A stretch of DNA of 64,000 nt, taken from the NCBI GenBank assembly GCA_964387845.1, contig CAYLXA010000007.1:1-64000 (forward strand). Direction: 5' to 3'. Source of the stretch: an uncultured bacterium. GTDB taxonomy: Bacteria > Omnitrophota > Omnitrophia > Omnitrophales > Abzuiibacteriaceae. Of the stretch, positions 5,333-22,420 are shown in pieces. Within the stretch, counting starts at the first letter, position 1. Each line of letters begins with the position of its first letter. The translations under genes were made by a program, and so were the position numbers. Below the pieces are notes generated by a model, which saw nothing but the letters and a program-made list of their open reading frames with translations, ran no database searches and was not told the origin of the DNA.

Positions 5333-5651
5333 AACCTTCTACTTTATGTCAATACAAAGGGTAAAAAAATTGACCAATATCTATTCTGGCTAGACATTTA
5401 TCTGGTATCAGGAGATTTTTTGTTAGAAAAGTCTTTAAGAAGTGGGTTCAAAACAAAAATTCAATGTCCTAGCCGATGAGAGATGCTAAATTCTATGGCT
5501 GACAATCGGGTTAGAAGCGACAGATAATTTACCTTCCGAATCCCGCAAGTTTTGATTAAAATACAACTTCATTTCGGGGTGCCCTGACTTTTTCAAAATC
5601 AGGACAACCCCGAATTTTAATGAATATACTTTGGTTGGTTTAAAGGTAATT

Positions 5652-5724
5652 CGGGGTGTAGCTCAGCGGCTAGAGCACTCGCTTTGGGAGCGAGGGGTCG
5701 TGCGTTCAAATCGCACCATCCCGA
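5652..5724 (+). tRNA. tRNA-Pro (anticodon TGG)
   Basis: I folded the cloverleaf by hand. The acceptor is CGGGGTG/CATCCCG (one GU) with discriminator A. The D-arm is GCTC...GAGC. The anticodon stem CTCGC/GCGAG holds the loop TT-TGG-GA. The T-arm is GTGCG-TTCAAAT-CGCAC. No CCA is encoded. Confidence 0.85.
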
Positions 5725-5856
5725 TTCTTTTTTATCTGCGATTTGAACCAGGTTCTCCGCCAAAAATCGCGGCGGATCCGCCAAGCAGTGTGGCGGAAAA
5801 TCCCGCCACCCCGATACTCGGGTATATTGTGTAAACCATGTGCCAGTAAGTTCACC

Positions 5857-7573: not shown

Positions 7574-8098
7574 CTATTTTTTAAGGTTTAAGTACACAAT
7601 ACTCATTTCGGCCGAAATAAAACCTGTGCCGGCGGAGCGCGCGCTAATCACGTAACGACTCACGTAAATCGGCTTTTCAAGCGCCGTCAATGCATGTAAA
7701 AACTCCAAAAAGCTTTGGACATTCCCGTCCACCTGCACCAACAATTCTTCCTGCAGGAATTGACCTTTTTTCTGTTCTCCAACCGGCCGGATTTGCCTCA
7801 AAATCAGGCGATGATCCGCAACCAAACTCGGAATCATATCGGCCCACTTTGATCCCGAATTATCTGTGCTAGTGAATGCAGCAAACGCTTCCAGCTCTTG
7901 CTCCCGTCCTTGAAAATCTGCTTTCGATTCAAGCAGTAAGTTTGACTCCGCATATTCACGGGCTTTTTGATTGAGAGCAAAGCTCAACGAACCGAGCCAT
8001 CTGATATTAAGCGCGGTCAAGCCTAAAAGAATAATAATCAACATGAGGGATTTTCGCAAATCGAAAAACTCGATTAATTTCATTAGTCTTTTTTCCAT
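7574..8098 (-). CDS. GspM/PilO-like bitopic inner-membrane assembly protein
   Basis: A single N-terminal TM segment (LMLIIILLGLTAL) is followed by a roughly 120-aa periplasmic domain. It sits between the GspL-like gene and gspE. Confidence 0.45.
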   Translation of the reverse strand: MEKRLMKLIEFFDLRKSLMLIIILLGLTALNIRWLGSLSFALNQKAREYAESNLLLESKADFQGREQELEAFAAFTSTDNSGSKWADMIPSLVADHRLILRQIRPVGEQKKGQFLQEELLVQVDGNVQSFLEFLHALTALEKPIYVSRYVISARSAGTGFISAEMSIVYLNLKK

Positions 8099-8108
8099 AT
8101 TTTCCCCG

Positions 8109-9506
8109 TTAGTCGAAAGATCTCAAACTGCCCCGAACTGCGAATTGAAATTGCAAATCCCGGGAATCCCGGGAGCTCTCCGAATATTGGAGCTCTACTT
8201 TAGAGAACCAGGCAATACCGCCCAGCGCCTTAACATACCGGTCAATCGCGCTTTGCGAAATTGAAATCCCTTTAAGCCGGACACTCTTATCTTCGCTGTT
8301 GTACTCCAACTCGCTCAATTGAATCTCGCTGCCGGCTTGCTCATGAAGCCGAACAAAAACATCGATCGGGCGGATTTTGTCAAGACGAAGCCGGTTCAAA
8401 AACTTAACTTTTCGGGAAATTTCTTTCACCTCCCTGACATCCGGATCTAAAATCGATAACTGCCGGTTAAAATAAGAAATGCCAAGAAGCTCACGGAGCG
8501 GAAAAAATAACGAGAGCAAGAATGCAGACATACAGCCGAATACAACGGCTGATCGTAGCGTTGCCCAGCTTTTCTGCAAACTGGCGGTAAAAATCCTTCC
8601 CTTGATTTCATCGGGCAGCAAGTTAAATTCTTCACATTCTTCATCCGGCGTTTCTGCGGCAGCAGCGAATAAGAAATCCATCGGTAATGGATTTAACTCA
8701 ACTTCCGGAAGCGCGTGAATTGTGTGCCGTGTCACAAGCCAATCGGATTCCGTTTTATAAAGTTCGCCGCCCAAATAAACGGAAAGAGATCGTTCATCGC
8801 CATTCTGATCTAGCAAGTCAAAAATAGGCCGCAAACCCGCATCCGCAGTATGGGCAAGATCCATGAGGTCATAGGAAAAAGTGCGGCTTAGCTGAACGCC
8901 CTGCAAATCATATAAGACGGCTTCACCTTTTCCGCGGAAGCCAAACAAAAATAAGGCGGGAAGATGCCGTGATTTGTCATGAACTTTCCGCAAATATCCC
9001 GATAGTGCGATTGTCGACAGCAGAATCGAATCAGGCATGATACCAAATGACCGGATGATATCGTACTCGTGCGTCACTGCATCTTTTGAAACGCCGAATA
9101 ATAGAACGGCTGTCTGCACAGTTGCGATTTTGGATTCTGATTTAATTGGATGAAAATGGTAAACAATTTCATCAATCGACGACGGAATTTCCCGCGGCAA
9201 GCGAAGCCGGAGCATTTGCTTGATCTCGTTCAAGTTTTTGGAAGGAAACTGGAAATTTTTGATAAAAGCCCGGTCTCTTGAAATAATATGCCGGTACTCC
9301 AGATTTTTGACGCCGGTTTCGGACAACAATAGGTGCATCTCATGCTTGCGTTCTGCGGCGGTTAGCTTCATGTAAGCAAATTCTTTTCTTGCGATACAAC
9401 GGGCACGGCCTCCGGCCGGTATCTGCAGGATGGCAAAATGCAGGACATCGCCTTGGATTAGGCTAACACCCATTACTCTCGAGGATTCTTTCTTAAAAAT
9501 GCCCAT
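8109..9506 (-). CDS. GspL-like assembly protein (PilM-like cytoplasmic domain + TM + PilN-like periplasmic domain)
   Basis: A roughly 300-aa cytoplasmic actin-like region is followed by a TM segment (VVFGCMSAFLLSLFF) and a C-terminal periplasmic domain. It occupies the gspL position between gspK and gspM. Confidence 0.5.
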   Translation of the reverse strand: MGIFKKESSRVMGVSLIQGDVLHFAILQIPAGGRARCIARKEFAYMKLTAAERKHEMHLLLSETGVKNLEYRHIISRDRAFIKNFQFPSKNLNEIKQMLRLRLPREIPSSIDEIVYHFHPIKSESKIATVQTAVLLFGVSKDAVTHEYDIIRSFGIMPDSILLSTIALSGYLRKVHDKSRHLPALFLFGFRGKGEAVLYDLQGVQLSRTFSYDLMDLAHTADAGLRPIFDLLDQNGDERSLSVYLGGELYKTESDWLVTRHTIHALPEVELNPLPMDFLFAAAAETPDEECEEFNLLPDEIKGRIFTASLQKSWATLRSAVVFGCMSAFLLSLFFPLRELLGISYFNRQLSILDPDVREVKEISRKVKFLNRLRLDKIRPIDVFVRLHEQAGSEIQLSELEYNSEDKSVRLKGISISQSAIDRYVKALGGIAWFSKVELQYSESSRDSRDLQFQFAVRGSLRSFD

Positions 9507-9586: not shown

Positions 9587-10672
9587 TTACCCCAACGAAC
9601 TTTCCCGCCAATACAATATTTCGTACGGGTATCCGCGCAAAACATTGTTCATAACGTTTTGGATCCCATAGCCGGACCCGCGCGGCTGTTTGATTAAAAT
9701 CGGGAGCCCTGGGCCTATGACCGTCTCGAGTTTCTGTGGAAGCAATTTGCCTGATTTCTGTCGTTCGAGCTTCACCGAAAAATACTGGGAATCCACCGTG
9801 AAAAACCGCAGTGTAAAATTAACAAGCTGCACCATCTGCGGTGAATTGATGAGGCCCAAACGGTTCATGAAAATCTGCGGAGATAGGTCGGCTGCTTGAA
9901 AAGCAAACGGCGGCTGCTCGGCAGATTTCTTTTCATTTTGCCTTCGAATCGCCAGAAGTCTCTGAATAAGGTCTTTTTTCTCTAAATCACCGCCCGGCTG
10001 ACTGGCGATGATTGCTTCAAGGACCCATTCATTGACTGTGTTAATGTTAACTTTCAGAAAAAAATCAGCTATCGACCCGTAAACCGTAAAGTAGGCCTTC
10101 AATGCCTCGTAATCTTCCGGAGTAATATACTGAATGAGCCTGAGCTCGTCTATGGATTCAAATTTCGCCCGTTTATGTTCATGGCCTAAAGTGGCTTTCC
10201 CCTGCAGCGACTGGACCCCACGCCAGGCCATGATACTTCCAACCAAATCATCCTCGTCGGCCTTTAGTTCGACACCCTTCTCTTTCAGTATCTCGAAAAA
10301 GTTTTGAAGAATCTCCGGGGTAACTTTGTTGAGGTTTAATTTACTTTCCTCATCCGAAACGGTCATGGCTATCCTTTTCGATAGCTCAAAATCGTTGTAA
10401 GCACTTGGATGTCCATACCAAGCTTCCAAATCGGAGTCGTTAAGCGGGTCCTCGTCTTCATTAATTAGATAAGATGCCACATTCACCGCTGATAAATATT
10501 CATAAAGACTGGCCGCTTCACGCTCATGCATGGCAGACAATTGGATTTGAATCCGGCTTCTAAAGCCGACGCTTGCGGCCAGCACTGTCAGTACGATTAA
10601 AATCCAAAGCACAAAGATCAAAATGCTCCCTTGTTTGGGTTGAATTTTTCGGCAAAGCGAGTTTTGAATCAT
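9587..10672 (-). CDS. gspK: T2SS minor pseudopilin GspK
   Basis: The N-terminus is GSILIFVLWILIVLTVLAAS (GspK-type). An SKLNLNKVTPEIL motif (KxNxN) is present. Confidence 0.75.
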   Translation of the reverse strand: MIQNSLCRKIQPKQGSILIFVLWILIVLTVLAASVGFRSRIQIQLSAMHEREAASLYEYLSAVNVASYLINEDEDPLNDSDLEAWYGHPSAYNDFELSKRIAMTVSDEESKLNLNKVTPEILQNFFEILKEKGVELKADEDDLVGSIMAWRGVQSLQGKATLGHEHKRAKFESIDELRLIQYITPEDYEALKAYFTVYGSIADFFLKVNINTVNEWVLEAIIASQPGGDLEKKDLIQRLLAIRRQNEKKSAEQPPFAFQAADLSPQIFMNRLGLINSPQMVQLVNFTLRFFTVDSQYFSVKLERQKSGKLLPQKLETVIGPGLPILIKQPRGSGYGIQNVMNNVLRGYPYEILYWRESSLG

Positions 10673-11352
10673 GACGACCCCAAAAGCTGCGTTAAAATCC
10701 CTTGCGGAATTAAAAAATCTAGAGTTTCTTCGGTATTGTTCGTAACTTTTCCTTTGATTGCAAACCGGATTGCCCGCGGAATCCCTTGATAAGGCTTATC
10801 CGAGAGCTCGTTTTTCCAAATAAGGTTACCGTCATGCATTTTGTAAGCAAATTGAAACTTGCAAGCCGAAAGCGGAAGCAAAGGCTCTGATTCCGGATTA
10901 CCGCTATCCGAAAATTTTTTCCTAATCTTCTGCTCTGTCCGGACAATTTGCCCGTCCCGGCATTGGTAACTCACTTGATACAAATCTTCTGTTAACTGAT
11001 CCCGGTCATAGCGCCACAGCCGGGCCGGAAACTCGAGTTTGTCGGATTTTCCTTCAAACGGAACCGGTGCATAAAAAATAGCAGCTCGTAGTTCTTTTCC
11101 CAGCTGCGCGGTTAACATGCTGAGTTCATGGCGGCTTCCCAACTGAGATTCAATGCGTTGGTACGCCACAAATCCCCCTCTAAAAGCACCGTAAGCCGAA
11201 ATAACCACCACCGCAAACAAAGAAAGCGCGATAATCATTTCAATCATCGTAAAACCAAACACGCAGCGGCTTTTGTTATGATTTTTTCTGGTTTCCATAT
11301 TGTGCCATATAGAAAACATCCTGAAAAAAAGATCTCTGTCTTGCATCAACAA
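10669..11352 (-). CDS. prepilin-type minor pseudopilin, GspJ-like
   Basis: It carries the prepilin N-methylation motif GFTMIEMIIALSLFAVVV. It sits at the gspJ position. The start is probably internal to the listed ORF (METRK...). Confidence 0.55.
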   Translation of the reverse strand: MLMQDRDLFFRMFSIWHNMETRKNHNKSRCVFGFTMIEMIIALSLFAVVVISAYGAFRGGFVAYQRIESQLGSRHELSMLTAQLGKELRAAIFYAPVPFEGKSDKLEFPARLWRYDRDQLTEDLYQVSYQCRDGQIVRTEQKIRKKFSDSGNPESEPLLPLSACKFQFAYKMHDGNLIWKNELSDKPYQGIPRAIRFAIKGKVTNNTEETLDFLIPQGILTQLLGSS

Positions 11353-11743
11353 CTTGAAAACTCACTTTGTAAAACTCGACGGTTTTCTTAACCGGGTTCC
11401 TGGGTGGCTGAGGATTTTCCTGCCGCTCTTTTTCATCTTCTTCCTCAGGCGCCAACGGCGTTAGCTTTTCAGCTGAGATACGCGCGGCCAAATTACTTTT
11501 CTCTCCCTCGGCGGAAAATAATTGCAACATTGATGGATCAAACGAAACAGGATCCAAATACCAGCCGAGAAGTTTCTGATCCAGAATTTTATGAACTTCA
11601 TTTGCTTTAATCGACCGGTTCGATACCGAAAGAGATCCGGAAAATACACGAAGCGCTGATACGACGCCGATGGCCAAAATCGTAGTGGCAATCAGCGCTT
11701 CGATCAGAAGCGCGCCTTTAGTGAATCGGGGCCGGTTAAGCAC
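11276..11743 (-). CDS. minor pseudopilin, GspI-like
   Basis: The N-terminus is KGALLIEALIATTILAIGVV, a degenerate prepilin motif with Glu at +5. The size is small. It sits at the gspI position. Confidence 0.5.
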   Translation of the reverse strand: MLNRPRFTKGALLIEALIATTILAIGVVSALRVFSGSLSVSNRSIKANEVHKILDQKLLGWYLDPVSFDPSMLQLFSAEGEKSNLAARISAEKLTPLAPEEEDEKERQENPQPPRNPVKKTVEFYKVSFQVVDARQRSFFQDVFYMAQYGNQKKS

Positions 11744-12245
11744 GGCTCACCTCGACGGTGCCGATCCGGTTCTTAAGCCTGAACAGCATCCGCTCGCGAC
11801 CGGATTCTTTCAGAAGAATCAGCCGGTTTTTGGATGAAGAGCCATCCGGATAAAACAAGATCTCACCACCCCTTTCACTTTCAAGTGATAACGATTCACC
11901 AAGCCGGAAAGACCTGATCAGGCTTGATTTGACGGGTTCAAACCCGCGCCCTTCTTCATTTTGGCGTTTGATATGTAACTGTCTTTTGTCAGAGCTCACT
12001 GCAAGCTGATAGACTAGCCCGTCCTGCAATGCTTTCATTTGCAAAAACCTAAAAACCGTTTCGATGCCTCGCGTGGCATGGTCCAGCTCATTTTGGCGAT
12101 TCGTTTCAACCATCCGGACAGCGCCGAATCCCACCAGGATCACGATTAAGGTCAGCACCACAAGCTGCTCGACCAATGTGAAACCTTTCGGCCGGCGGCT
12201 AGCTTTTGTATGGATATTATTTAATGAAATTTTGCTGCAAGACAT
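11736..12245 (-). CDS. prepilin-type pseudopilin, GspH-like
   Basis: It carries the canonical KGFTLVEQLVVLTLIVILVGFG motif. The C-terminal ILFYPDGSSSKNRLILL is GspH/FimT-like. Confidence 0.6.
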   Translation of the reverse strand: MSCSKISLNNIHTKASRRPKGFTLVEQLVVLTLIVILVGFGAVRMVETNRQNELDHATRGIETVFRFLQMKALQDGLVYQLAVSSDKRQLHIKRQNEEGRGFEPVKSSLIRSFRLGESLSLESERGGEILFYPDGSSSKNRLILLKESGRERMLFRLKNRIGTVEVSRA

Positions 12246-13041
12246 ATTCTTTCCAGCTCTCTTCCATTTCTTCTAAAGTAGAAAAATCCTGCTTAAAACT
12301 TTTGAGCATGGCTTGCTCAAACTCGACGCCGTCCCGCAGAGACCTGCAAAAGTTAATGAAATAAGAAGGATCTCGATTTTCGAGCAAAAACCGGACCATG
12401 CTTTCAGATTGTGAATAAAATAATCCCGCGTCTTCTGTCTTTTTCTCATGCAGAAAATTCATTTGGTTCAAACTTCGTAGCGGAATCGTTTTCCCCTCTT
12501 CGACCGCCTTGGCTACAATGGCTTGATACTGTCTTTTTTCTCCTTCCTCCTGCCACACGGCAAAACCCTCATCCAGCCACCTCGGAATCTGTCCATTCTG
12601 AAACCCGACGAATTCTCTGAAAATCAGGTGCGCCATTTCGTGCGGTAGCACGGACTCCAAAAAGCGGGGTGCATTTTGATAGCTGACAATCGTGCGCCGA
12701 GACGGAATCGAAAACCCGCCCGACCATTCGGGTTGTTTCGAATAAGTTAAGTATGCACTTTGGGAATCATACAAATAGATTTTGCAACGGTTGTCCCACA
12801 GCCAGAAATTTTTCTGAGGCAGCGAACCAAAATAGCGGACAGTTCGGTCGTAACTTTGCTCAGCGTAAAACAAAACCGATTGCGCAAAACCCGAATCCAC
12901 GCCTCGTTGTGCATAGACCAAAAAGTGGGTCCCTTTCAGCTCCCGCCATCCCTCTTCAGCGTAAAGCGTTTTTCCGGAAAAAATGGCGGAAAAGAATAAA
13001 AGAAAGGAAAATGTCAGGGAAAGAGCTCTATTTATATGCAT
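12217..13041 (-). CDS. secreted MA-clan zinc metallopeptidase-like protein (Peptidase_MA_2/DUF1570-like)
   Basis: It has a signal peptide (MHINRALSLTFSFLLFFSAIFSG). An HExxH motif (LPHEMAHLIF) is followed by WLDEGFAVWQEEGE. It is embedded between gspF and gspH. Confidence 0.5.
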   Translation of the reverse strand: MHINRALSLTFSFLLFFSAIFSGKTLYAEEGWRELKGTHFLVYAQRGVDSGFAQSVLFYAEQSYDRTVRYFGSLPQKNFWLWDNRCKIYLYDSQSAYLTYSKQPEWSGGFSIPSRRTIVSYQNAPRFLESVLPHEMAHLIFREFVGFQNGQIPRWLDEGFAVWQEEGEKRQYQAIVAKAVEEGKTIPLRSLNQMNFLHEKKTEDAGLFYSQSESMVRFLLENRDPSYFINFCRSLRDGVEFEQAMLKSFKQDFSTLEEMEESWKEYVLQQNFIK

Positions 13042-13046
13042 AAGGC

Positions 13047-14291
13047 TTATTGGGCCAGCAAATTAATTTCAAATATTGGAAGAAGCAGCGAGAGAACAAT
13101 AAATCCGATGCCTAAACCAATGACCAAAATCAGCACTGGTTCTAACAGCGTCGTACCAAGCCTTAATTTTCGATCTAGCTCACGCTCGTAAAACACAGCG
13201 ATTCTTTCGAAAATTTTATCGAGATTGCCGCTCTCTTCCCCAACCGTCAGGAAACTGGTGACCAGCTCCGGAAACATGCGCGTCTCATCAATTGAGCTGC
13301 TCAGTGTTGAACCTTGCGAAACTTGCATGGCAACTTGTTTAAGCGAAGCTCTAAGGGCAGGATCCATGACAACTTGCTCTGTAATTTTAATGGAATCGAT
13401 CAACGAAACACCGCTTTTAAGCAAGAGCGACCAAGTTCTAGCGAGCGGTACGAAATCCGCCAAGAAGAAAAGAGAATTGAACGTCGGAACTTTTTTAACG
13501 ATACTCGCCACCAACGCCTGCTTCGCCTGCCGGCCCATCCGGTTCCAAGCCAAAATTGCTGCTATTAAAACACCAAGCGCTGCAAACCCGAGCCCATTCG
13601 TGAACAATTGGCTTAACGACAACAAAATGCGGGTCGGTAGCGGCAGCGGATGTTCCCAGGTTTCAAAAAAGACCATCAACTTAGGAATAATGAAGGTCAT
13701 AATCAGGATCACGGTGACAACACCAAAAAGCATGACAAAAAGCGGATACGCAAGTGCTTGTGTGATTTTTGCACGCAGTTCAGCTTCGGCTTCAAACGAT
13801 TTCGAAAGTTCGGCAAATACAACATCCAATTTACCGCTTGCCTCACCTGCTTGGACAGCGCCTGAAACGGTCGGCGGGAAAATATTGGGGAAATTAGCAA
13901 CCGCCTCCGAAAGCTTGATTCCGCTCTGAATATCGGCCGCCATATGATCCAAAGCAGCGGTTAGTGTCGGATGGCGGACTTGTTTCTTAACCAACTGCAG
14001 ACTCTTTAAGAGCGGAAATCCGGAGACCAGCAAAAGCGACAGATGATCAAAAATATTGGCAAGGTCGCGTGCCGAAACTTTCTTGCCTGTTTTCCATTCA
14101 AAACGTTTTGCTTTAAACAAGGAAGGTGCTTTTTGGGGCGCAGACTTTTTAGTATCGGCTTGGATTGAAAGCGGGAAAAAACCCTGAGAAGTTAATTTCT
14201 GGTAAACAGCAGCTTCGGATTCTGCCTCAAGCGTCCCCCTAACAACTTCTCCTCGGCTGTTTTTAGCTTCGAACTGGTATCTTTGAATCAT
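13047..14291 (-). CDS. gspF: type II secretion system inner-membrane platform protein GspF
   Basis: It has the duplicated GspF domain architecture and three TM segments. The N-terminus MIQRYQFEAKNSRGEVVRGTLEAESE is typical. Confidence 0.9.
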   Translation of the reverse strand: MIQRYQFEAKNSRGEVVRGTLEAESEAAVYQKLTSQGFFPLSIQADTKKSAPQKAPSLFKAKRFEWKTGKKVSARDLANIFDHLSLLLVSGFPLLKSLQLVKKQVRHPTLTAALDHMAADIQSGIKLSEAVANFPNIFPPTVSGAVQAGEASGKLDVVFAELSKSFEAEAELRAKITQALAYPLFVMLFGVVTVILIMTFIIPKLMVFFETWEHPLPLPTRILLSLSQLFTNGLGFAALGVLIAAILAWNRMGRQAKQALVASIVKKVPTFNSLFFLADFVPLARTWSLLLKSGVSLIDSIKITEQVVMDPALRASLKQVAMQVSQGSTLSSSIDETRMFPELVTSFLTVGEESGNLDKIFERIAVFYERELDRKLRLGTTLLEPVLILVIGLGIGFIVLSLLLPIFEINLLAQ

Positions 14292-14300
14292 TGAAACCGC

Positions 14301-16478
14301 TTAGCTGACTTCAAACTTGAGATCAAGCAGCTCTTGATCCGAATCCATGTCCTTTGAAAATGGCGGAAAAGGTGAAAGCGATTTGACTGCTTCCGTAATA
14401 ATGCGCACCTCATGCTCGGATAAGCCGGTATCGCTGGCTACATAACTCAATTCAACAGCACCGCTTTTATCCACAATCAAAAAGAGTTCAAACTTTGCGG
14501 TCAATTTCTGAAACTCAGGCCTTTGGTTCAATACTTCGGCGATTGCCGCGTGTATCATCCCCCGATAGTATTCTCTTGCACGATGAGACGCCGGCAAAAT
14601 CTCGCCTCCTTGGGGCGTTAATTCCATGTAATCATTGACGCTACCCCGGTTCGGCAAAGACGCTATCGAAGAGTTTCGTGGGGCAATCATAAGCGGCTTT
14701 TCTTTGACGGGAGATTCCCAATAGGGTTCATCATTTAGGCGAAACGGCCCATGAGAAGTAGTGGATTGTGCCTTCAGAAAATCATAGCCGCCGACCTTGT
14801 CAAAATCGACCCATTCGCCCTGCTTATCTAAATATCGCTGCCGCTCCATGGAATCCGACTTCCCGTCGACGATGCGCGGCGTCAGAAACACCACAAGCTC
14901 CGTCTTATTAAAATCATTCGATTCTGTCCGGAATGCAGCGCCCACCCATGGAATATCACCCAAAAACGGAATCTTCTTCCTGGTTTTTCCGTGGCGGTCT
15001 TGCATTAGCCCGCCGATCACAACCGTGGCTCCATCCCGCGCAACCACAGTCGTTTCAAGTGTTTGGGTCGTCACAACCGGAACAACCGTACGGACAAAAG
15101 TCGCATCACTGCCTGATGCTGCGCCCTGCAATTGGAGCGGGTCGCCTGCCGTACTGACTTCGGGTTTCACTTTTAATACAACCGAGCGGTCTTCTGAGAT
15201 CGTGGGAACAACTGAAAGTGTGACGCCAACGTCGATAAACTGAACCTGGTCAGCAGTGGTCGACGTCGATTGGCTCTGGGAAACCGTTTGCGAAACAAAC
15301 GGCTGCCGGGTTGCAACTGCGAGCTTGGCTTCCTCATTATTCAAAACCAATAAACGCGGGCTCGATAAAATATTCGTCTTTCCGATATTTTGCAAAATAC
15401 TGATGACACTCTGAAAACTTGTCGGGTCGTTTTCACCGCCTTCTTCGCCGATGGTGAATGTACTTAAACTGCCGCCGCCAAGCGTCGATGACGGAGCTGA
15501 TACGGAAAAATTCGGCGCCGCATTAAACATTTTGGCATCGCCGAGCCTGCTTGCAACATAATTCCAATTCACACCGAACCTGTAAGCATCGAAAAGCTGG
15601 ACTTCAACCACCTTTGCATCAATCAAGACTTGAAGGGGCCGCACATCAAAAGCTTTTATGATTTTTGCAACCTGATCAACGTTTTCCTTGCGGTCGGTGA
15701 TAGAAACCTGATTAGTTCGTTTATCGATTTTAAGAAGCCCAGTGGTTGCAGTCAAAAAATCCTTTAATTGAGTTTCCAGATCGGCAACTTTAGCAAACTG
15801 AAGCGTAAAAACTTTGGTGACGAGCGGCTCATCAAAAGAGTTCACGGCCTCTTCAATTTCATCCAGAACTTCGGGCATATCCGTCACGATCACCGTGCTG
15901 GTTCGCTCATCCAGCGCGATCCGGCCGGATGTGCTTTTCATGGTTTGCAGCACGGTATTCATGGCTTGAGGATTGGCATATTTGAACTTAAAAGTCCGCG
16001 TTTCCCTTTCATCGCGAAATGGTTTTCCGAATTTTGATTCGTATTCCTTGTTACCCATCACGGTAATAATGCCGTCCTTTTCTTCATAAGCAAGCCCGAG
16101 CGTTTGAACCACAGTATCCAATGCCTTTCGGACTTCAACATCTTGAAGATACAGCGTGACGTCGCCCTTTACATCGCGCCCGGCAACAATATTAAGCCCG
16201 CTCCGCTTTGACAAAATTTTCAAAACATCTAAGACATTCACGCCTTTAAGTTCCAGCGTGATGGTTGAGGAGGTTATTCCGCGCGAAGTTGCACCAGAAG
16301 CTGTATAGTCAACCGGCGGCTGTGAGAAATTAGAAAAGGTTTCTTCCGAATCTGAATAAGAAGGAGGGCTGTTGGGATCTTGGGCAATCGCGAACGGAAT
16401 CGCCGGTAAACCGCTTAACATAAGACCAACGCTTAAGAAAAAAGCGAGCATGCGTGATTTCATTTTAGGTCTCCTCAA
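14301..16478 (-). CDS. gspD: T2SS secretin GspD with C-terminal extension (TonB_C-like?)
   Basis: Signal peptide, N0/N1/N2 domains (LKGVNVLDVLKILSKRSGLNIVAG) and a secretin core (VVIGGLMQDR...IPFLGDIPWVGAAFR...ELVVFLTPRIV) are present. A roughly 190-aa extra C-terminal tail follows. Confidence 0.9.
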   Translation of the reverse strand: MRRPKMKSRMLAFFLSVGLMLSGLPAIPFAIAQDPNSPPSYSDSEETFSNFSQPPVDYTASGATSRGITSSTITLELKGVNVLDVLKILSKRSGLNIVAGRDVKGDVTLYLQDVEVRKALDTVVQTLGLAYEEKDGIITVMGNKEYESKFGKPFRDERETRTFKFKYANPQAMNTVLQTMKSTSGRIALDERTSTVIVTDMPEVLDEIEEAVNSFDEPLVTKVFTLQFAKVADLETQLKDFLTATTGLLKIDKRTNQVSITDRKENVDQVAKIIKAFDVRPLQVLIDAKVVEVQLFDAYRFGVNWNYVASRLGDAKMFNAAPNFSVSAPSSTLGGGSLSTFTIGEEGGENDPTSFQSVISILQNIGKTNILSSPRLLVLNNEEAKLAVATRQPFVSQTVSQSQSTSTTADQVQFIDVGVTLSVVPTISEDRSVVLKVKPEVSTAGDPLQLQGAASGSDATFVRTVVPVVTTQTLETTVVARDGATVVIGGLMQDRHGKTRKKIPFLGDIPWVGAAFRTESNDFNKTELVVFLTPRIVDGKSDSMERQRYLDKQGEWVDFDKVGGYDFLKAQSTTSHGPFRLNDEPYWESPVKEKPLMIAPRNSSIASLPNRGSVNDYMELTPQGGEILPASHRAREYYRGMIHAAIAEVLNQRPEFQKLTAKFELFLIVDKSGAVELSYVASDTGLSEHEVRIITEAVKSLSPFPPFSKDMDSDQELLDLKFEVS

Positions 16479-16995
16479 TCAAAATTTCTTTTTCATCTCC
16501 GGCACACCTGATGATAACACTGTGGTTTTGGATCAATTGGATTGAAACGCCTTCAAGATCGTTTCCGGCTGTTACAAAATGAGTCTGGCGCGTGCGCTTA
16601 TTCACAAAGATTGCTTCATTTTGGCCGCCTTGAACAATTCCTGATAAGGAAAAAGTTTGGCCAAAATCATCACAAGGGCTTTTACTAACCACCGTTTCCT
16701 GTTTCGCGGTACCGAAAATAGGATGAGCATCGATAATTTGGCTGTAAACATCTATCGGCTGCAGCTCCGGCAAATCCCGCAAACCCATGACCTCTTGCTC
16801 CGGATGCATGCTGCCAAGTTTTTGAAAATAAAAAGGGCTTGAAAGCATCGCAAAAATTAGATAACCAAATACCACAAGCGCCGCCAGAAAAAATAAGAAT
16901 GAAGCCCGATCCTGCCACAAGCCTTTTCCGACAACCGGCCGGATCACATACTTTAAGATCGGATTAGACTTCATTTCGTCCATAATTATCGACAT
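16465..16995 (-). CDS. GspC/PilP-like secretin-interacting protein
   Basis: An N-terminal TM segment (FLFFLAALVVFGYLIFAML) is followed by a C-terminal beta domain (FSLSGIVQGGQNEAIFVNKRTRQTHFVTAGNDLEGVSIQLI) resembling the GspC HR/PilP fold. It overlaps the secretin start. Confidence 0.45.
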   Translation of the reverse strand: MSIIMDEMKSNPILKYVIRPVVGKGLWQDRASFLFFLAALVVFGYLIFAMLSSPFYFQKLGSMHPEQEVMGLRDLPELQPIDVYSQIIDAHPIFGTAKQETVVSKSPCDDFGQTFSLSGIVQGGQNEAIFVNKRTRQTHFVTAGNDLEGVSIQLIQNHSVIIRCAGDEKEILIEET

Positions 16996-17068: not shown

Positions 17069-18148
17069 TCAAAAAATTGACCTCTCCTTATAGATGCTCA
17101 CCAAAAGACCGATAGCCACAAAAGTTGCAACCAATGAAGAACCTCCATAACTCAGAAGCGGGAGTGTGATGCCGGTAATGGGCGCAATGCCAATCGTCAT
17201 CCCAAGATTGATAAAAATCTGAAAAAACAGCATGGCCGTAATTCCAGCCGCCAACAGTTGCGCTCCGCGATCCGTAGTTCGCTCCATAATTTGAACGGCA
17301 TAAGTAATTAAAGCACCATACAAAAGAATAAGCAAAAGCGACCCTAAAAATCCAAACTCTTCACCCACCACACAAAAAATAAAGTCAGTGTGATGCTCCG
17401 GTACAAAATCAAGTTGGGTCTGTGTTCCCTGCAACCATCCTTTCCCGACAAGTCCACCCGAACCTACTGCAATTTTAGACTGCATGGCCGTATAACCCGA
17501 GCCCAACGGATCAATATTTGGATTCACGAAGACAGTTAAGCGTTTCTGTTGATAAGGTTTCAGCATGTGCCACAAGAAAGGCGCGCTGATCAGCACAACG
17601 CTAAACACAGCTGCCAGATAACGGAATTTGATGCCCCAAATGACTAAAATAGCGAGGGTAGCGGCAATAAAAACCATAGACGTGCCCAAATCCGGCTGTT
17701 TCAGAATCAAAACAAACGGAAGCGCGACAATTGCGGCAGCCATCAGCAGACTTCGTTTTTGTCCATGCCACCGGTCTCGATAGAGTAAAAAATGGGAAAG
17801 TGCAAGAATGGTCGTGATTTTGCTGAATTCAGAGGGCTGCAAGACAAACGGCCCTATTTGAAACCAGCGCTGAGCTCCCAAACGCTCATGGCCGAATATC
17901 AAAACCGACAGCAGCAGACAAATCGAAATTCCGTACAATAAATAAGACGCGTTCAAAAATGTGCGGTATCCAAACATGATGACGAGCAGCATGGCCGCCA
18001 AAGAAAAAGAAATCCACACCAATTGTTTGACAATAAAATGATCTGTGCCACGAAAAGTTGCGCTATAAATAAACAAAACGCTGCTTAAAGCAATGCCTAA
18101 GGCTAAAAAAATAATCGGCCAATGAACGTCCTTAAAATATCGGATCAC
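17069..18148 (-). CDS. rodA: rod shape-determining protein RodA (SEDS family)
   Basis: It is a multi-TM FtsW/RodA family protein (PDLGTSMVFIAATLAILVIWGIKFRY). It lies adjacent to mrdA. Confidence 0.9.
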   Translation of the reverse strand: MIRYFKDVHWPIIFLALGIALSSVLFIYSATFRGTDHFIVKQLVWISFSLAAMLLVIMFGYRTFLNASYLLYGISICLLLSVLIFGHERLGAQRWFQIGPFVLQPSEFSKITTILALSHFLLYRDRWHGQKRSLLMAAAIVALPFVLILKQPDLGTSMVFIAATLAILVIWGIKFRYLAAVFSVVLISAPFLWHMLKPYQQKRLTVFVNPNIDPLGSGYTAMQSKIAVGSGGLVGKGWLQGTQTQLDFVPEHHTDFIFCVVGEEFGFLGSLLLILLYGALITYAVQIMERTTDRGAQLLAAGITAMLFFQIFINLGMTIGIAPITGITLPLLSYGGSSLVATFVAIGLLVSIYKERSIF

Positions 18149-18157
18149 AAACTCACC

Positions 18158-19921
18158 TTAAATCGTTACCGGCGGCAAAATCGGTTTGATAAATTCTTCC
18201 TGCGTCGCATAAAGTTCATGCCATGCCATCACAATTTTTTTCGCCAGTGACGCGGCCACCAAACCGCCGGAGCCGCCATGCTCAACGACGATCACAAGCG
18301 CAACCTGCGGCTTTTCGTACGGAAAAAAGCCGGCAAACCAGGCGTGCGAAAGCCTCGGTGGCGCTTGGGCTGTTCCGGTTTTAGCGGCCAGCCTCATGAA
18401 GTCAACGCGCGCCAGCTGCCCGGTGCCGTATTTTGATTCCGTCACTTTAAGCATGCCTTGCCGGATCGTTTTCAAAGTAGATACTTTAATCGGAATCGAT
18501 TCCAAATCTTCCGCCGGCGCATCCTGCTTGAGCAGCGTCGGTTTCACAATTTTACCGTCATTTGCGATAATAGACACTAACCTGAGAATTTGAAGTGGGG
18601 TTGTTTGTACATAACCCTGCCCGATTGCGAAAGTAATCGTTTCGCCTTCGTACCAATGCTGGCCGGGCTTGCTTTCTTTCCATTCGGCAGAAGGAATAAA
18701 ACCGTCAGAAGCCGGAATCTCAAGCTCTAACGGCTCTCCCAATCCAAGCAGATGCGAATATTTCGAAAGCGACTTCTCTCCGACAATCCGGCCAAGATTA
18801 TAAAAATAAACATTGCAGGAACGTTCAAGCGCGCCGAACAAATTAACACTGCCGTGGCCCAGAGCATCCCAGCATTTAAATCTCCTGGATCTTGCAGAGA
18901 GCCGGTAGTAACCCGGACAATTAAAAGTAGAATTCGGCGTGATTTTTCCCGTCTCAAGACCGGCGGCGGCCGTCACAAGCTTAAAGACCGAGCCGGGCGG
19001 GTATGCACTCATCACAGAACGGTTAATCAACGGCCGCCTTGAATTTTTCATTAACCTCACGCGGTCTCGATCGCGGCCCGGCTCGACAAACACATTCGGA
19101 TCATAACCCGGATTGCTGAGCATCGTCAGCATTTCCCCGGTCTGTAAATCCATCATCAGTACTGCGCCGGTCTTTTCCCCGAAAATCGGCAAGATTTTGG
19201 ACCCCAACTCAAGGTCAAGCGATAATTGAACATCCGAACCCGGTACCGGTTTTTTTTCGCTCAAAACACTCAATTGCTCGCCGCGGGCATTAACTTCGAT
19301 TTGTTTGCCGCCATCCTCACCTCTTAACATGGCGTCAAAACTTTTTTCGATTCCGATGCGGCCGATATCAGAATTAATCGCATATACATCCCGGTCAGCA
19401 TTCCGGTATTCAGTATCCGTAATTTTCCCGATGTAACCGATGACATGCGAGCTAATTTCATAAGCCGGATAATGGCGAACGCCTTGGACATCGATAAACA
19501 CGCCGGATAGAAGCGGGCTTTTTTCTTCTATTTGAATGGCGAGGTCTTTTCCGATATCTTTCTTGAGAATGACAGGTGTCAATGATTTCGAACGAACGGA
19601 AGATAATTGTTTCCGGATTTCGGATACGGGCAGATTAAGAAACTTACTCAAAACGGGCAAATCCTTTGGATCAAAATCTTCCGGAATAATCGAAACGTTA
19701 TAGGAAGTACGGCTCGTGGCAAACGGTTTTCCGTTCCGGTCCAAAATTTGGCCGCGCGGCGCCATGGTGCGGACAAGCCGGATACGGTTATGCTCACTTA
19801 CCCGGCGGTAATGACCGGTCCGGATCACTTGAATTTGAAACAGGCACACCAAAAGCAAAAACAGAAGCGTGTAAGCGGTAAATTTAAACAATTGGATTCT
19901 TTGCGTAATTGATTTCAGCAT
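18158..19921 (-). CDS. mrdA: penicillin-binding protein 2 (peptidoglycan D,D-transpeptidase MrdA)
   Basis: An N-terminal TM anchor and PBP dimerisation domain are present. The transpeptidase active-site motif is SVFK. Confidence 0.9.
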   Translation of the reverse strand: MLKSITQRIQLFKFTAYTLLFLLLVCLFQIQVIRTGHYRRVSEHNRIRLVRTMAPRGQILDRNGKPFATSRTSYNVSIIPEDFDPKDLPVLSKFLNLPVSEIRKQLSSVRSKSLTPVILKKDIGKDLAIQIEEKSPLLSGVFIDVQGVRHYPAYEISSHVIGYIGKITDTEYRNADRDVYAINSDIGRIGIEKSFDAMLRGEDGGKQIEVNARGEQLSVLSEKKPVPGSDVQLSLDLELGSKILPIFGEKTGAVLMMDLQTGEMLTMLSNPGYDPNVFVEPGRDRDRVRLMKNSRRPLINRSVMSAYPPGSVFKLVTAAAGLETGKITPNSTFNCPGYYRLSARSRRFKCWDALGHGSVNLFGALERSCNVYFYNLGRIVGEKSLSKYSHLLGLGEPLELEIPASDGFIPSAEWKESKPGQHWYEGETITFAIGQGYVQTTPLQILRLVSIIANDGKIVKPTLLKQDAPAEDLESIPIKVSTLKTIRQGMLKVTESKYGTGQLARVDFMRLAAKTGTAQAPPRLSHAWFAGFFPYEKPQVALVIVVEHGGSGGLVAASLAKKIVMAWHELYATQEEFIKPILPPVTI

Positions 19922-19936
19922 GAATGATGCTCTTGA

Positions 19937-20473
19937 TTAAAAAAGTTCATATTGTTTCGCCGGATCCAATCCAAAAAGCCGCCTTAACATAGGGAAAATA
20001 GCAACGGCTATCGCAGCCGTATAGATCGAGATCGACAAAACCTTTGGAAAAGCAGAGACAGCTTGGCTTGCTCCGCTATCTGCCATCATTAAAAGCACTG
20101 GAATAGCCAGTGCCGTAACCGAAAATAAGAAAACACCCAATAACGTGACAAAATAATCTCCGCGATTAAATTCCATTACCGCATACTGGAGCAGCAACGA
20201 ACTGCATACAAGCGACACAGTTTCTAAACCAAAAAAAGAATGACTTAAAAAATCGCGGCACAGCCCCAGGAAAAAGCCCATCCATACCACTTCCCGGTAA
20301 TCAATAGCAAACGCATAAAATGCGATCAAGAGCAAGATGAGATCCGGCGAGACCCCTTCAATCGAAATGGCCGGCACGAAAGCCATTTGCAGCCAAATCA
20401 CAAGGCCCGAGATCAGTAACGTCTTTCGCCGGAACGATTTCATTTCACAGGCCTCGCCTTCCGGTCTACGCAC
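19937..20473 (-). CDS. mreD: rod shape-determining protein MreD
   Basis: It is a small polytopic membrane protein immediately downstream of mreC. Confidence 0.6.
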   Translation of the reverse strand: MRRPEGEACEMKSFRRKTLLISGLVIWLQMAFVPAISIEGVSPDLILLLIAFYAFAIDYREVVWMGFFLGLCRDFLSHSFFGLETVSLVCSSLLLQYAVMEFNRGDYFVTLLGVFLFSVTALAIPVLLMMADSGASQAVSAFPKVLSISIYTAAIAVAIFPMLRRLFGLDPAKQYELF

Positions 20474-21246
20474 AAAACTTCTTCTAACTTCGAAAAATCG
20501 GTGATAGGTTTCACGACCGCATAGAGCCCTAAACGGTTCTGGTCTTCACCGATCTGCACAACGCTTCCAATCGGAATCCCCTTCGGATAAATTCCGCCAA
20601 GCCCGGATGTCACAACGGTTTGCCCGACCTGGATTTGTGCGTGAAGATCAATGTAAGTCATTTTGAGAAGCGGCGTGCCGTCACCTTCCACCAGCCCGAC
20701 ATCTCGGGTTTCTTGAATTAAAGCGCCTGCTTTTGATTCGCTGTCGATCAGCAAAATCACATTTGCTGCATGCGGCGTCACCTCAACAACTTTACCCATC
20801 AAACCTTCGCCGGCCAGCACCGGCATTTCTTCGTAAATTCCGTCTTTTGCCCCTTTATTGATGGTGATGTAATAAGACCAATGCGAGATATCGTGAGCAA
20901 TAACCTGAGCGGAAATAGTTTTGAAAGCATTTTCGCTTTGAAATTTAAGCAGGCGGCGCAATCTTTCATTTTCAAGCCGGGCTTCCTTTAAATCTGACAT
21001 CTGAAGCTTGAGCGACTCAATCGCTTCCCGAAGTTCTTCGTTTTCAGCCTGCGCTTTTAATGCTTCTTTGAGAAAACGCCACTTAGAACGGACGAAATCA
21101 CCTGTTTGATGAGCAGCATTCAGGAAAGGTTGCGTAACAGAGGTAGAAAGTTGGCGGCCAAATTCAACGCCTTGCGGAAAATATGCGCCGAGAAAAAAGG
21201 GGACTAAAATCAGGGATAGGACCAAAACAGCTTGCTTTAAACGCAC
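20440..21246 (-). CDS. mreC: rod shape-determining protein MreC
   Basis: It has an N-terminal TM segment and coiled coil, then a C-terminal beta-barrel domain. It lies between mreB and mreD. Confidence 0.85.
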   Translation of the reverse strand: MRLKQAVLVLSLILVPFFLGAYFPQGVEFGRQLSTSVTQPFLNAAHQTGDFVRSKWRFLKEALKAQAENEELREAIESLKLQMSDLKEARLENERLRRLLKFQSENAFKTISAQVIAHDISHWSYYITINKGAKDGIYEEMPVLAGEGLMGKVVEVTPHAANVILLIDSESKAGALIQETRDVGLVEGDGTPLLKMTYIDLHAQIQVGQTVVTSGLGGIYPKGIPIGSVVQIGEDQNRLGLYAVVKPITDFSKLEEVLCVDRKARPVK

Positions 21247-21271
21247 CGAATCCCCCTACCGCTAGAGAGTA

Positions 21272-22360
<1,089 letters not shown>

Positions 22361-22420
22361 TCAATAAGTAGTGCAATTTAGGGAGTATAACGGACGCGCA
22401 ATTATCTGTCAACGAAAGAC

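Follow-up and report, generated by a model that had tools for sequence, protein, structure and literature searches.

A Peptidase_MA_2 zinc peptidase gene held between gspF and gspH in an Omnitrophota T2SS-like cluster, with paralogues in the dcw cluster

The stretch of DNA analysed here (the window) spans 64,000 nt, positions 1-64,000 of contig CAYLXA010000007.1 in assembly GCA_964387845.1, from an uncultured member of the Omnitrophota (Abzuiibacteriaceae). On its minus strand lies a T2SS-like cluster that contains a gene for a Peptidase_MA_2 gluzincin, called PepMA below. The relevant features are listed by descending coordinate, those internal to PepMA directly after the gene itself.

17069..23716, minus strand: murA-mreB-mreC-mreD-PBP2-rodA (elongasome), assigned from translations; EPSP_synthase/MurA E 8e-123
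16465..16995, minus strand: 176-aa ORF in the GspC/PilP position; no family match, upstream of the secretin in related loci too
14301..16478, minus strand: secretin (GspD); Secretin E 1.8e-46, Secretin_N
13047..14291, minus strand: GspF platform protein, immediately upstream of PepMA; T2SSF E 1.5e-56, TIGR02120 E 1.9e-93
12217..13041, minus strand: Peptidase_MA_2 gluzincin gene PepMA; ATG start, 274 aa
12958..13041, minus strand: predicted Sec signal peptide, residues 1-28, from sequence; cleavage after LYA placed by inspection only
12628..12642, minus strand: HEMAH, zinc-binding and catalytic motif (H134, E135, H138), residues 134-138, from sequence
12559..12579, minus strand: WLDEGFA, residues 155-161, from sequence
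12568..12570, minus strand: E158, predicted third zinc ligand (HExxH-x19-E), invariant in alignments
12415..12417, minus strand: Y209, invariant Tyr in alignments, candidate transition-state stabiliser
11736..12245, minus strand: GspH-like minor pseudopilin; N_methyl motif with canonical GFTLVE, TIGR01708 E 1.7e-8, below the curated cut-off
11276..11743, minus strand: pseudopilin in the GspI position; weak PilV/ComGE N-terminal matches, position conserved in related loci
10669..11352, minus strand: GspJ-like pseudopilin; T2SSJ E 5.2e-6, N_methyl
9587..10672, minus strand: GspK-like minor pseudopilin; NF037980 E 1.9e-24, below the cut-off, T2SSK_1st
8109..9506, minus strand: PilM/PilN-type assembly protein in the GspL position; PilN E 5.8e-5, weak PilM match
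7574..8098, minus strand: 174-aa ORF in the GspM/PilO position; no family match, position conserved in L005, L089 and L090
5857..7554, minus strand: GspE/PilB-type ATPase with an N-terminal MshEN c-di-GMP-binding domain; TIGR02533 E 5.4e-169, NF053729

The gene order is GspC-position ORF, GspD, GspF, PepMA, GspH-I-J-K, GspL- and GspM-position ORFs and GspE, and the whole cluster directly follows murA-mreBCD-pbp2-rodA on the same strand, a supercluster of elongasome and secretion genes that is kept in two related loci (L089 and L090). Only 5 nt separate the GspF stop codon from the PepMA ATG, and the longest ORF of the GspH-like gene overlaps PepMA by 29 nt. The first-pass annotation had described a 274-aa ORF lying between gspF and gspH with this same overlap, and both the ORF and its location are borne out, GspH being the best match of the downstream prepilin-type protein. 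A single ATPase gene and no PilT-like gene were found in the cluster, and no A24 prepilin peptidase gene within the window. Downstream of GspE the window encodes PD40 and FlgD_ig proteins, and two related loci (L005 and L092) encode an adhesin-like protein of >2000 aa there. That everything from mreB through gspE might form a single operon is an idea drawn from spacing, a single good -35/-10 match (22412-22384) and a single terminator-like hairpin (5783-5770); promoter and terminator scans of the window did not rise above shuffled background.

PepMA matches the Pfam model Peptidase_MA_2 (PF13485) over residues 87-267 with an E-value of 3.9e-20 and 72.9 bits against a cut-off of 32.4, far above chance. 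This was its sole Pfam match: the scan returned no Peptidase_M1, Peptidase_M9 or A24, no wall-hydrolase domain (SLT, glucosaminidase, M23, NlpC/P60 or amidase) and no wall-binding module, and none of the Gsp, Pil or Com models in Pfam and NCBIfam matched. The earlier label 'Peptidase_MA_2/DUF1570-like' is therefore right in its first half, while DUF1570 was not recovered by the Pfam scan at E<=0.01. Both motifs reported at first pass, HEMAH and the downstream WLDEGFA, are in place, and H134, E135, H138, E158 and Y209 are invariant in alignments of 40 and 112 family sequences, with HExxH kept in 87 of 87 sequences derived from the loci described below. Further residues (H39, Y64, W80, W82 and W106, besides Y209) are invariant in the 112-sequence alignment of the Omnitrophota subfamily. 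E158 aligns with the glutamate of WLNEGFA in M1 aminopeptidase N and sits on helix 154-163 of the structure model; Y209 presumably has a catalytic role, as gluzincin enzymology would suggest. Because the whole catalytic residue set is invariant, we rule out a pseudo-enzyme.

The structure model shows a thermolysin-like fold of two subdomains in a single domain of ~245 aa. The closest solved structures are peptidase domains of M9 collagenases (Grimontia hollisae 7wss; ColT 4ar8; ColG 2y3u), at 13-18% sequence identity in structural alignments, and the secreted M30 endopeptidase lugdulysin is also among the nearest folds; sequence matches in the PDB are confined to the HExxH..E stretch, at E ~0.04. 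PepMA consists of one N-terminal hydrophobic segment and, after it, a soluble domain. Its predicted signal peptide, noted at first pass and here read as Sec type, is MHINRALSLTFSFLLFFSAIFSGKTLYA with EE after the cleavage site; K/R precede the hydrophobic core and there is no lipobox Cys. An N-terminal hydrophobic segment recurs in 107 of 112 family members, of which only 2 are lipobox-like. Judged from sequence, the ORF is a real gene for a predicted exported, single-domain zinc peptidase of ~245 mature residues, with peptide-bond hydrolysis as its predicted activity. The broader first-pass view of an exported MA-clan HExxH peptidase-like protein inside a T2SS-like operon is supported by the Peptidase_MA_2 match and by the neighbouring genes.

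A word-indexed search recovered 173 homologues of PepMA. Among 1.84 billion representatives, its subfamily accounts for 353 representative clusters at E<=1e-30, and the broad PF13485 family for 12,844 representatives at E<=1e-3. PepMA shares with PF13485 the HExxH and the downstream Glu and scores above the curated cut-off, and its subfamily forms a tight Omnitrophota group inside that family, set apart by the extra invariant residues. Relatives already carry the NCBI name 'peptidase MA family metallohydrolase'. Ten longer relatives yielded an AhpC/TSA (thioredoxin-like) fusion and an ABC-2 membrane-domain match only, and no wall-binding module. Literature searches found no functional study of PF13485, Peptidase_MA_2, 'peptidase MA family' or DUF1570. 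The Omnitrophota papers searched leave the gene unmentioned, the word 'peptidase' does not occur in PMC10066038, and the supplements of a metaproteome paper that includes V. archaeovorus gave no match.

The order GspF-PepMA-GspH is kept in 8 of 8 distinct related loci, down to ~40% identity. Of the two outcomes that the first-pass annotation named as refuting, loss of HExxH in homologues and absence of the gene from syntenic T2SS loci, neither is seen. Loci of this type are the window (with L091), L090, L089, L087, L092, L005/L006 and L007; L089 and L090 were reached from the GspF side, with no reference to the peptidase, by searching with the GspF protein and then inspecting gene context in four cases. 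A metagenome scan with three close GspF sequences gave 2 loci, one of them already known, and is no unbiased sample. Identities of the window proteins to L090, L089, L087, L007 and L005 are 73, 51, 45, 40 and 43% for PepMA, 80, 55, 47, 46 and 45% for GspD, 81, 56, 41, 49 and 41% for GspF and 69, 45, 31, 30 and 27% for GspH. PepMA is conserved about as well as the secretin and the platform protein and far better than the pseudopilins, and in the lineage of the window it belongs invariably to the T2SS-like cluster.

The family extends well beyond this cluster type. In 32 other Omnitrophota clusters (T2SS/T4aP-like) a member lies between GspF and GspG. The GspF-PepMA junction survives the rearrangements by which the two cluster types came to differ in the placement of GspE, GspD and GspG. 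At 43 loci a paralogue sits in the dcw cluster as murG-PepMA-murC, with gaps of <= ~200 bp, and two MAGs carry a pilus-cluster copy together with a dcw copy (JBAZKL01, L038 and L084; CAIRWO01, L068 and L063). Some ATPase/pilus superclusters have a family member at their head, and these copies are dcw-like in sequence, which suggests that the two kinds are interchangeable in function. Altogether, only two kinds of operon account for 79 of the 87 classified sequences (the window and 86 retrieved loci), and the junctions concerned are precise and conserved deeply. Elsewhere, copies in L062, L042 and L093 stand amid unrelated housekeeping genes, such neighbours being serS/dnaX/recR or 2-oxoacid dehydrogenase genes, and in at least one ATPase/T4aP-like cluster of the Omnitrophota (L095) no PepMA gene lies within 8 kb; a link to one or other machine is thus frequent and not obligatory. 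The dcw paralogues and the other arrangements argue against a cargo specific to the T2SS and toward a general role in the envelope or cell wall, and the recurrence of the family in both secretion/pilus and cell-division/cell-wall operons hints at a cell-envelope function that has not been described.

Our preferred reading, to which we give a probability of only about 0.35, is that PepMA is a periplasmic peptidase that remodels the envelope or cell wall for the installation of these machines and is not itself secreted cargo. After Sec export, PepMA would act in the periplasm rather than outside the cell, as an accessory factor for installing envelope-spanning machines where wall is being synthesised. 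It may cut peptide bonds in the wall layer, either in the peptide stems and cross-links of peptidoglycan or in proteins tethered to the wall, and such cleavage could open or clear space for the T2SS-like apparatus, the dcw paralogue doing equivalent work at the divisome. By analogy with its family, the chemistry would use a zinc-activated water, with Glu135 as general base and Tyr209 stabilising the intermediate.

Several observations favour a function at the wall: the dcw paralogues, the presence of both copies in one MAG, the dcw-like copies at the head of superclusters, the position of the window cluster directly after the elongasome genes (as in L089 and L090), and a conservation of PepMA that tracks the core components GspD and GspF. 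Others tell against it. We know of no gluzincin that cleaves peptidoglycan, and the enzymes with the nearest folds (M9, M30 and M1) all have ordinary L-peptides or proteins as substrates. No family member has a peptidoglycan-binding domain, a classical NlpC/P60+SH3b endopeptidase is encoded elsewhere in the genome, and both L095 and the few copies among housekeeping genes lack the expected linkage. All that is proposed about the substrate is drawn from gene neighbourhood. It is more doubtful, and we put it forward as speculation, that in PepMA a T2SS/T4aP-type machine has, for the first time, a wall-opening enzyme dedicated to it, and that this enzyme founds a new class of gluzincins able to cleave peptides of peptidoglycan or proteins tethered to the wall, with paralogues in a secretion/pilus operon and, as a phylum-specific division gene, in the dcw cluster.

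The first-pass annotation had offered as candidate roles a dedicated substrate, a protease maturing pseudopilins or substrates, and a quality-control factor. Among the alternatives, the one that survives best, although we think it unlikely, also keeps PepMA in the periplasm and directs it at components of the T2SS/T4aP-like apparatus themselves. It might trim or degrade pseudopilins, for length control or for disassembly without a retraction ATPase, process bitopic proteins of the GspC/L/M type, or clear misassembled secretin, and the dcw paralogue would act likewise on bitopic divisome proteins (FtsQ/L/B-type). BepA and YcaL, which are periplasmic quality-control metalloproteases, offer an analogue for such a role. 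The gene directly follows GspF and precedes the first (pseudo)pilin gene, tightly packed or overlapping, in both the F-PepMA-H and the F-PepMA-G arrangement; its conservation is similar to that of core components, its nearest folds are true protein and peptide endopeptidases, and the single ATPase and missing PilT-like gene of the window cluster would suit disassembly of this kind. Two different sets of substrates would be required, however, to explain the dcw copies, an interchangeable function of the kind suggested by the dcw-like copies heading pilus superclusters fits poorly with such specificity, and L095 does without a linked copy.

As a rule, cargo genes are found at cluster edges and evolve fast. 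PepMA is instead embedded between gspF and gspH with an overlap and is as conserved as GspD and GspF, which makes it improbable that it is a dedicated cargo, one that reaches the periplasm by export and leaves it through the T2SS-like system to act outside the cell, for example on surface proteins of the prey or host of putatively predatory or epibiotic nanobacteria, in the manner of SslE/YghJ. Such a cargo would agree with the predicted Sec signal peptide and apparent lack of a membrane anchor, with closest folds that are secreted endopeptidases (M9 collagenases, M30 lugdulysin), with the precedent of SslE, which is secreted by a dedicated T2SS (PMC5012682, PMC3707838), and with the proposal that Omnitrophota are predators or symbionts (PMC10066038). 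Yet the 43 dcw loci are hard to account for in this way, and better cargo candidates are encoded downstream of GspE, namely the PD40/FlgD_ig proteins of the window and the large adhesin-like proteins of L005 and L092.

We give similarly poor odds to a general periplasmic housekeeping peptidase that has no specific tie to secretion or division and has merely come to rest in envelope operons whose expression is high and constitutive, in small, operon-dense genomes. The variety of contexts (after GspF, at the head of superclusters, in dcw, beside serS/dnaX/recR or 2-oxoacid dehydrogenase genes) would be expected of such an enzyme, and the pilus cluster without PepMA and the uninformative domain fusions agree with it, but the concentration of sequences at precise junctions in two kinds of operon is far from random lodging, and the GspF-PepMA junction outlasts the rearrangement of its neighbours. 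A replacement for the prepilin peptidase is rejected, since the K/R before the hydrophobic core place the catalytic domain in the periplasm and leader cleavage takes place at the cytoplasmic face.

T2SS and T4aP machines are wider than natural peptidoglycan pores, and the way they get across the wall is recognised as an open problem (PMC5285504). T4aP systems are reported to have no dedicated peptidoglycan hydrolase, and Pseudomonas installs its T4aP at division sites (PMC5285504). Unlike T3SS, T4SS and flagella, the T2SS and T4aP have no known dedicated wall-remodelling enzyme, and PepMA, with its secretin-level conservation inside its cluster type and its sister copy in dcw, offers a concrete gene to clone as a possible link between machine installation and wall synthesis in a large uncultured phylum. 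Should its substrate prove to be a protein, PepMA would still be a new accessory component of the type IV filament superfamily and a first point of entry to function in the uncharacterised Peptidase_MA_2 family. Two undescribed features of the Omnitrophota also emerge, a phylum-typical extra dcw gene and the elongasome-T2SS supercluster.

Compared with known systems, PepMA has the conserved presence and position of a canonical T2SS component and no Gsp homology. The only peptidase in canonical T2SS/T4P gene sets is GspO/PilD (A24), and in the pilB-pilC-pilD order of Pseudomonas the gene after the platform protein likewise encodes a peptidase. PilD, however, is a polytopic aspartic protease at the cytoplasmic face, whereas PepMA is by prediction a soluble, exported zinc enzyme, which would put the prepilin cleavage site out of its reach. 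We reject an M9 collagenase, given the missing Peptidase_M9 match, the low identity and the single ~245-aa domain; M9 collagenases have an activator domain and collagen-binding/PKD modules, and PepMA is a bare domain without these. An M1 aminopeptidase (APN, LTA4H, ERAP) is rejected as well, there being no Peptidase_M1 match and no GxMEN: PepMA has WSGGF ~25 residues before HExxH in its place and lacks the N- and C-terminal M1 domains.

The first-pass premise that no peptidase other than GspO belongs in a T2SS operon was too strong, as the E. coli T2SS-beta cluster is reportedly encoded together with the metalloprotease SslE/YghJ. SslE is very large and its gene lies at the edge of the T2SS cluster. 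It is an M60-like lipoprotein (PMC4014459, PMC5012682), and the likeness to PepMA is that of a zinc metallopeptidase gene linked to a T2SS cluster (PMC5012682, PMC3707838). PepMA differs in its 274 aa, its place inside the operon and its dcw paralogues, has neither an M60-like domain nor a lipoprotein signal, and lacks a lipobox, whereas SslE is the cargo of its system. The loci described in 2023 (PMC10066038) are the same as our GspE-GspF-PepMA-GspG clusters and PepMA-headed ATPase clusters; the window cluster differs from them in having the secretin first and GspE last, no adjacent ATPase, and a fusion to the elongasome operon. Like VirB1, EtgA and FlgJ, PepMA is encoded in a machine operon, is predicted to be exported and may act on the wall. 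These three are dedicated peptidoglycan hydrolases of other envelope-spanning machines. Machine-dedicated hydrolases of this sort belong to the lytic transglycosylases, muramidases or M23 peptidases, and PepMA to the gluzincins.

An active-looking, predicted exported zinc endopeptidase, PepMA, is a stable and tightly packed member of the T2SS-like operon in the window, and in Omnitrophota members of its family recur in envelope operons of two kinds. The first-pass annotation had described the gene from sequence, and its observation is confirmed: the ATG-initiated reading frame at 12217..13041 (minus strand) encodes 274 aa, with HEMAH at residues 134-138 (nt 12628-12642) and WLDEGFA at residues 155-161 (nt 12559-12579). 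Of the family label proposed there, "Peptidase_MA_2/DUF1570-like", the first part stands, as the Pfam profile Peptidase_MA_2 (PF13485) covers residues 87-267 (E 3.9e-20, 72.9 bits, cut-off 32.4), whereas DUF1570 gave no match to PepMA in the Pfam scan; the sole NCBIfam match, flagellinolysin, is weak. The signal peptide noted earlier is also predicted here, the N-terminus (MHINRALSLTFSFLLFFSAIFSGKTLYA|EE) being Sec-like and without a lipobox. A hydrophobic N-terminal segment is found in 107 of 112 relatives, and a lipobox-like motif in 2 of the 112. As had been reported, the gene lies between gspF and a GspH-like gene, overlapping the longest reading frame of the latter by 29 nt. Only 5 nt separate the stop codon of GspF (T2SSF, E 1.5e-56; TIGR02120, E 1.9e-93) from the PepMA ATG, and the downstream gene is prepilin-type, with GspH as its best match but under the curated cut-off.

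Genes around PepMA in the window in order of transcription (murA, then elongasome genes, then the T2SS-like cluster)
22421-23716, minus: murA
17069-22333, minus: mreB, mreC, mreD, PBP2, rodA
16465-16995, minus: 176-aa ORF in the GspC/PilP position
14301-16478, minus: secretin (GspD)
13047-14291, minus: GspF
12217-13041, minus: PepMA peptidase
11736-12245, minus: GspH-like
11276-11743, minus: pseudopilin in the GspI position
10669-11352, minus: GspJ-like
9587-10672, minus: GspK-like
8109-9506, minus: PilM/PilN-type protein in the GspL position
7574-8098, minus: 174-aa ORF in the GspM position
5857-7554, minus: GspE with N-terminal MshEN c-di-GMP-binding domain

On the T2SS-like side, rodA is followed after 73 bp by the next ORF on the same strand; promoter and terminator scans of the window gave no signal above background. 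Neither a GspG-type major pseudopilin nor an A24 prepilin peptidase is encoded anywhere in the 64-kb window; in the related loci L005/L006 a T2SSG gene (L005 5601-6008) precedes the GspC-position ORF and GspD. The Pfam Secretin domain stops at residue 538 of 725 in the window secretin, leaving a C-terminal tail of ~185 aa (14301-14860, minus) without a family match. The MshEN domain on the window ATPase, a PilZ domain joined to the ATPase in a related cluster (L095), and GGDEF response regulators adjoining the peptidase in L085 and L096 suggest c-di-GMP control.

We fetched 86 loci encoding PepMA relatives, added the window to make 87 sequences, and sorted all of these by tblastn with the window Gsp and Mre proteins and the Mur/Fts proteins of L001, a locus with a division/cell-wall (dcw) cluster. 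HExxH is kept in 87/87 of the locus-derived sequences, and four arrangements of the gene were found.

Arrangements of PepMA genes
Type A (window type): GspC-position ORF, GspD, GspF, PepMA, GspH-I-J-K, L- and M-position ORFs, GspE
Type B (32 loci): GspE-GspF-PepMA-GspG...GspK-PilMN
Type C (dcw; 43 loci): ...ftsW-murG-PepMA-murC-murB-ddl-ftsQ-ftsA
Type D (L085, L096; probably L048): PepMA, GGDEF response regulator, F-type ATPase, GspE, GspF, GspG

The GspF-PepMA gap is at most 300 bp in 25/32 type B loci, and in the 43 type C loci gaps around PepMA reach at most ~200 bp, with frequent overlaps. B and C copies occur together in two MAGs, JBAZKL01 (L038, L084) and CAIRWO01 (L068, L063). The gene lies outside these arrangements in L062 (between serS and dnaX-recR), L042 and L093. 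Inserts of 1.5-9 kb separate GspF from PepMA in four B-type clusters (L038, L012, L014, L034), the one in L038 (6875-9961) encoding a 1028-aa PAS histidine kinase. F-type ATPase genes adjoin the pilus clusters of L085, L095 and L096; L085 (2981-5299) encodes a b/delta/alpha fusion subunit of 772 aa, and L096 has an epsilon-like gene between GspE and GspF. In the dcw clusters of L001 (14667-16692) and L003 (14898-18539), ftsQ-ftsA is followed by unrelated genes (Ala_racemase_N-family or trehalose synthesis), and ftsZ is not adjacent. L062 also encodes a 990-aa, intein-interrupted RtcB RNA ligase (4252-7224).

A search with the window GspF was chosen as unbiased by the peptidase. Its orthologue series is clear from 100% to 43% identity and then falls to 38% or less, and ten GspF matches come from contigs equal in length to those of peptidase matches, which suggests that the two genes share contigs. 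Two orthologues whose contigs were missing from the peptidase matches, P0134 (56% identity, L089) and P0123 (81%, L090), are both directly followed by a PF13485 gene. The whole murA-mreBCD-PBP2-rodA-T2SS supercluster is kept in these two loci, whereas L005 and L092 lack it. Of two Omnitrophota GspFs at greater distance, one belongs to L096, which is type D, and the other to L095, where no peptidase lies within 8 kb. Because PepMA is kept in 8/8 distinct window-type loci (L089, L090, L005/L006, L007, L087, L091, L092) and L095 has no linked copy, the gene is fixed in the cluster type of the window and frequent but dispensable in cis in ATPase/T4aP-type clusters. Neither an unconserved HExxH nor a syntenic T2SS locus missing the gene, the two outcomes that the first-pass annotation set against its reading, was found.

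Identity (%) of window proteins to counterparts in L090 / L089 / L087 / L007 / L005
PepMA: 73 / 51 / 45 / 40 / 43
GspD: 80 / 55 / 47 / 46 / 45
GspF: 81 / 56 / 41 / 49 / 41
GspH: 69 / 45 / 31 / 30 / 27
GspL-position protein: 75 / 35 / 24 / 21 / 27

By these identities across five related loci, PepMA evolves as a core component and not as a pilin or typical effector. B and C copies form separate groups in a neighbour-joining tree. In profile cross-scoring type A copies are about equidistant from both (the window protein reaches 248 bits with the B profile and 265 with the C profile), and D copies are clearly C-like (for example L085, 231 and 279). One kind of protein is therefore placed either in dcw or beside a pilus cluster, which suggests that its biochemical job is shared.

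A word-indexed search returned 173 homologues of ~255-315 aa, all with PF13485, whose named source organisms are nearly always Omnitrophota/Omnitrophica; the tight family comprises 353 clusters at E<=1e-30 among 1.84 billion representative proteins. Residues H134, E135, H138, E158 and Y209, and likewise H39, Y64, W80, W82 and W106, are invariant in two alignments, one of 40 and one of 112 sequences. AlphaFold2 gives a confident model (pLDDT 91.6, pTM 0.85), with a mixed sheet N-terminally and a helical lower half, and a Foldseek comparison agrees. The match to solved structures in sequence is confined to the HExxH..WLxEG stretch (aminopeptidase N, E ~0.04). PepMA is thus predicted to be a minimal, catalytically intact gluzincin. 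It resembles the catalytic domains of M9 and M1 in fold and motif, and membership of either family was rejected because the defining features of both failed. The single clear soluble-domain fusion seen in the family, P0303 (409 aa, C-terminal AhpC/TSA-redoxin, thioredoxin-like domain), and P0377, with an ABC-2 membrane-domain match, are fusions or gene-calling artefacts. The window also encodes an NlpC/P60 and SH3b protein of the classical peptidoglycan endopeptidase type (42404-43777, minus) and a protein of 626 aa in which an N-terminal part resembling metzincins (Reprolysin_5/Peptidase_M10 matches) is followed by many TPR repeats (54799-56679, minus).

PepMA would act in the periplasm. What the installation of T2SS/T4aP machines would have in common with the divisome (dcw) and with the elongasome, whose genes lie directly upstream in the window, is that the wall layer is crossed or enlarged. 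A dedicated peptidoglycan hydrolase is explicitly reported to be missing from T4aP systems, which Pseudomonas installs at division sites (PMC5285504). For these reasons we favour, from gene neighbourhood and with a probability of roughly one in three, a peptidase that remodels the wall layer, with peptidoglycan peptides or wall-tethered proteins as its substrates. Our confidence is modest because we know of no peptidoglycan-cutting gluzincin, wall-binding domain fusions were not found among 10 longer members of the PepMA family, and not every cluster has to contain the gene.

A protease directed at the machine itself, for processing or quality control, is a less probable reading. That PepMA is a secreted cargo of the T2SS-like system seems unlikely, given its internal position in the operon, its slow evolution, its paralogues in dcw and the better candidates downstream of GspE: a PD40 beta-propeller protein and two FlgD_ig proteins (351 and 803 aa) in the window (943-5332, minus) and, at the same position in L005 (17888-20786) and L092 (17785-20822), an adhesin-like Cadherin/Big_9/He_PIG/CarboxypepD_reg protein of >2000 aa, all plausibly cargo or surface proteins. 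We give equally little weight to a general housekeeping protease that happens to be lodged in envelope operons.

As a putative remodeller of the wall layer, a role proposed from gene neighbourhood alone, PepMA offers a concrete candidate, inexpensive to test, for the question of how such machines get across the wall. The 2023 Omnitrophota paper (PMC10066038) makes no mention of a peptidase, a preprint of 2026 that covers complete Omnitrophota genomes mentions neither the PepMA gene nor dcw, and our literature search found no functional paper on PF13485. New here are a gluzincin built into a type IV filament or T2SS-like system and an additional dcw gene typical of the phylum. Among T2SS-linked metalloproteases the nearest precedent is SslE/YghJ, encoded with the E. 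coli T2SS-beta cluster, which differs from PepMA in family, lipidation and role, as well as in size and position.
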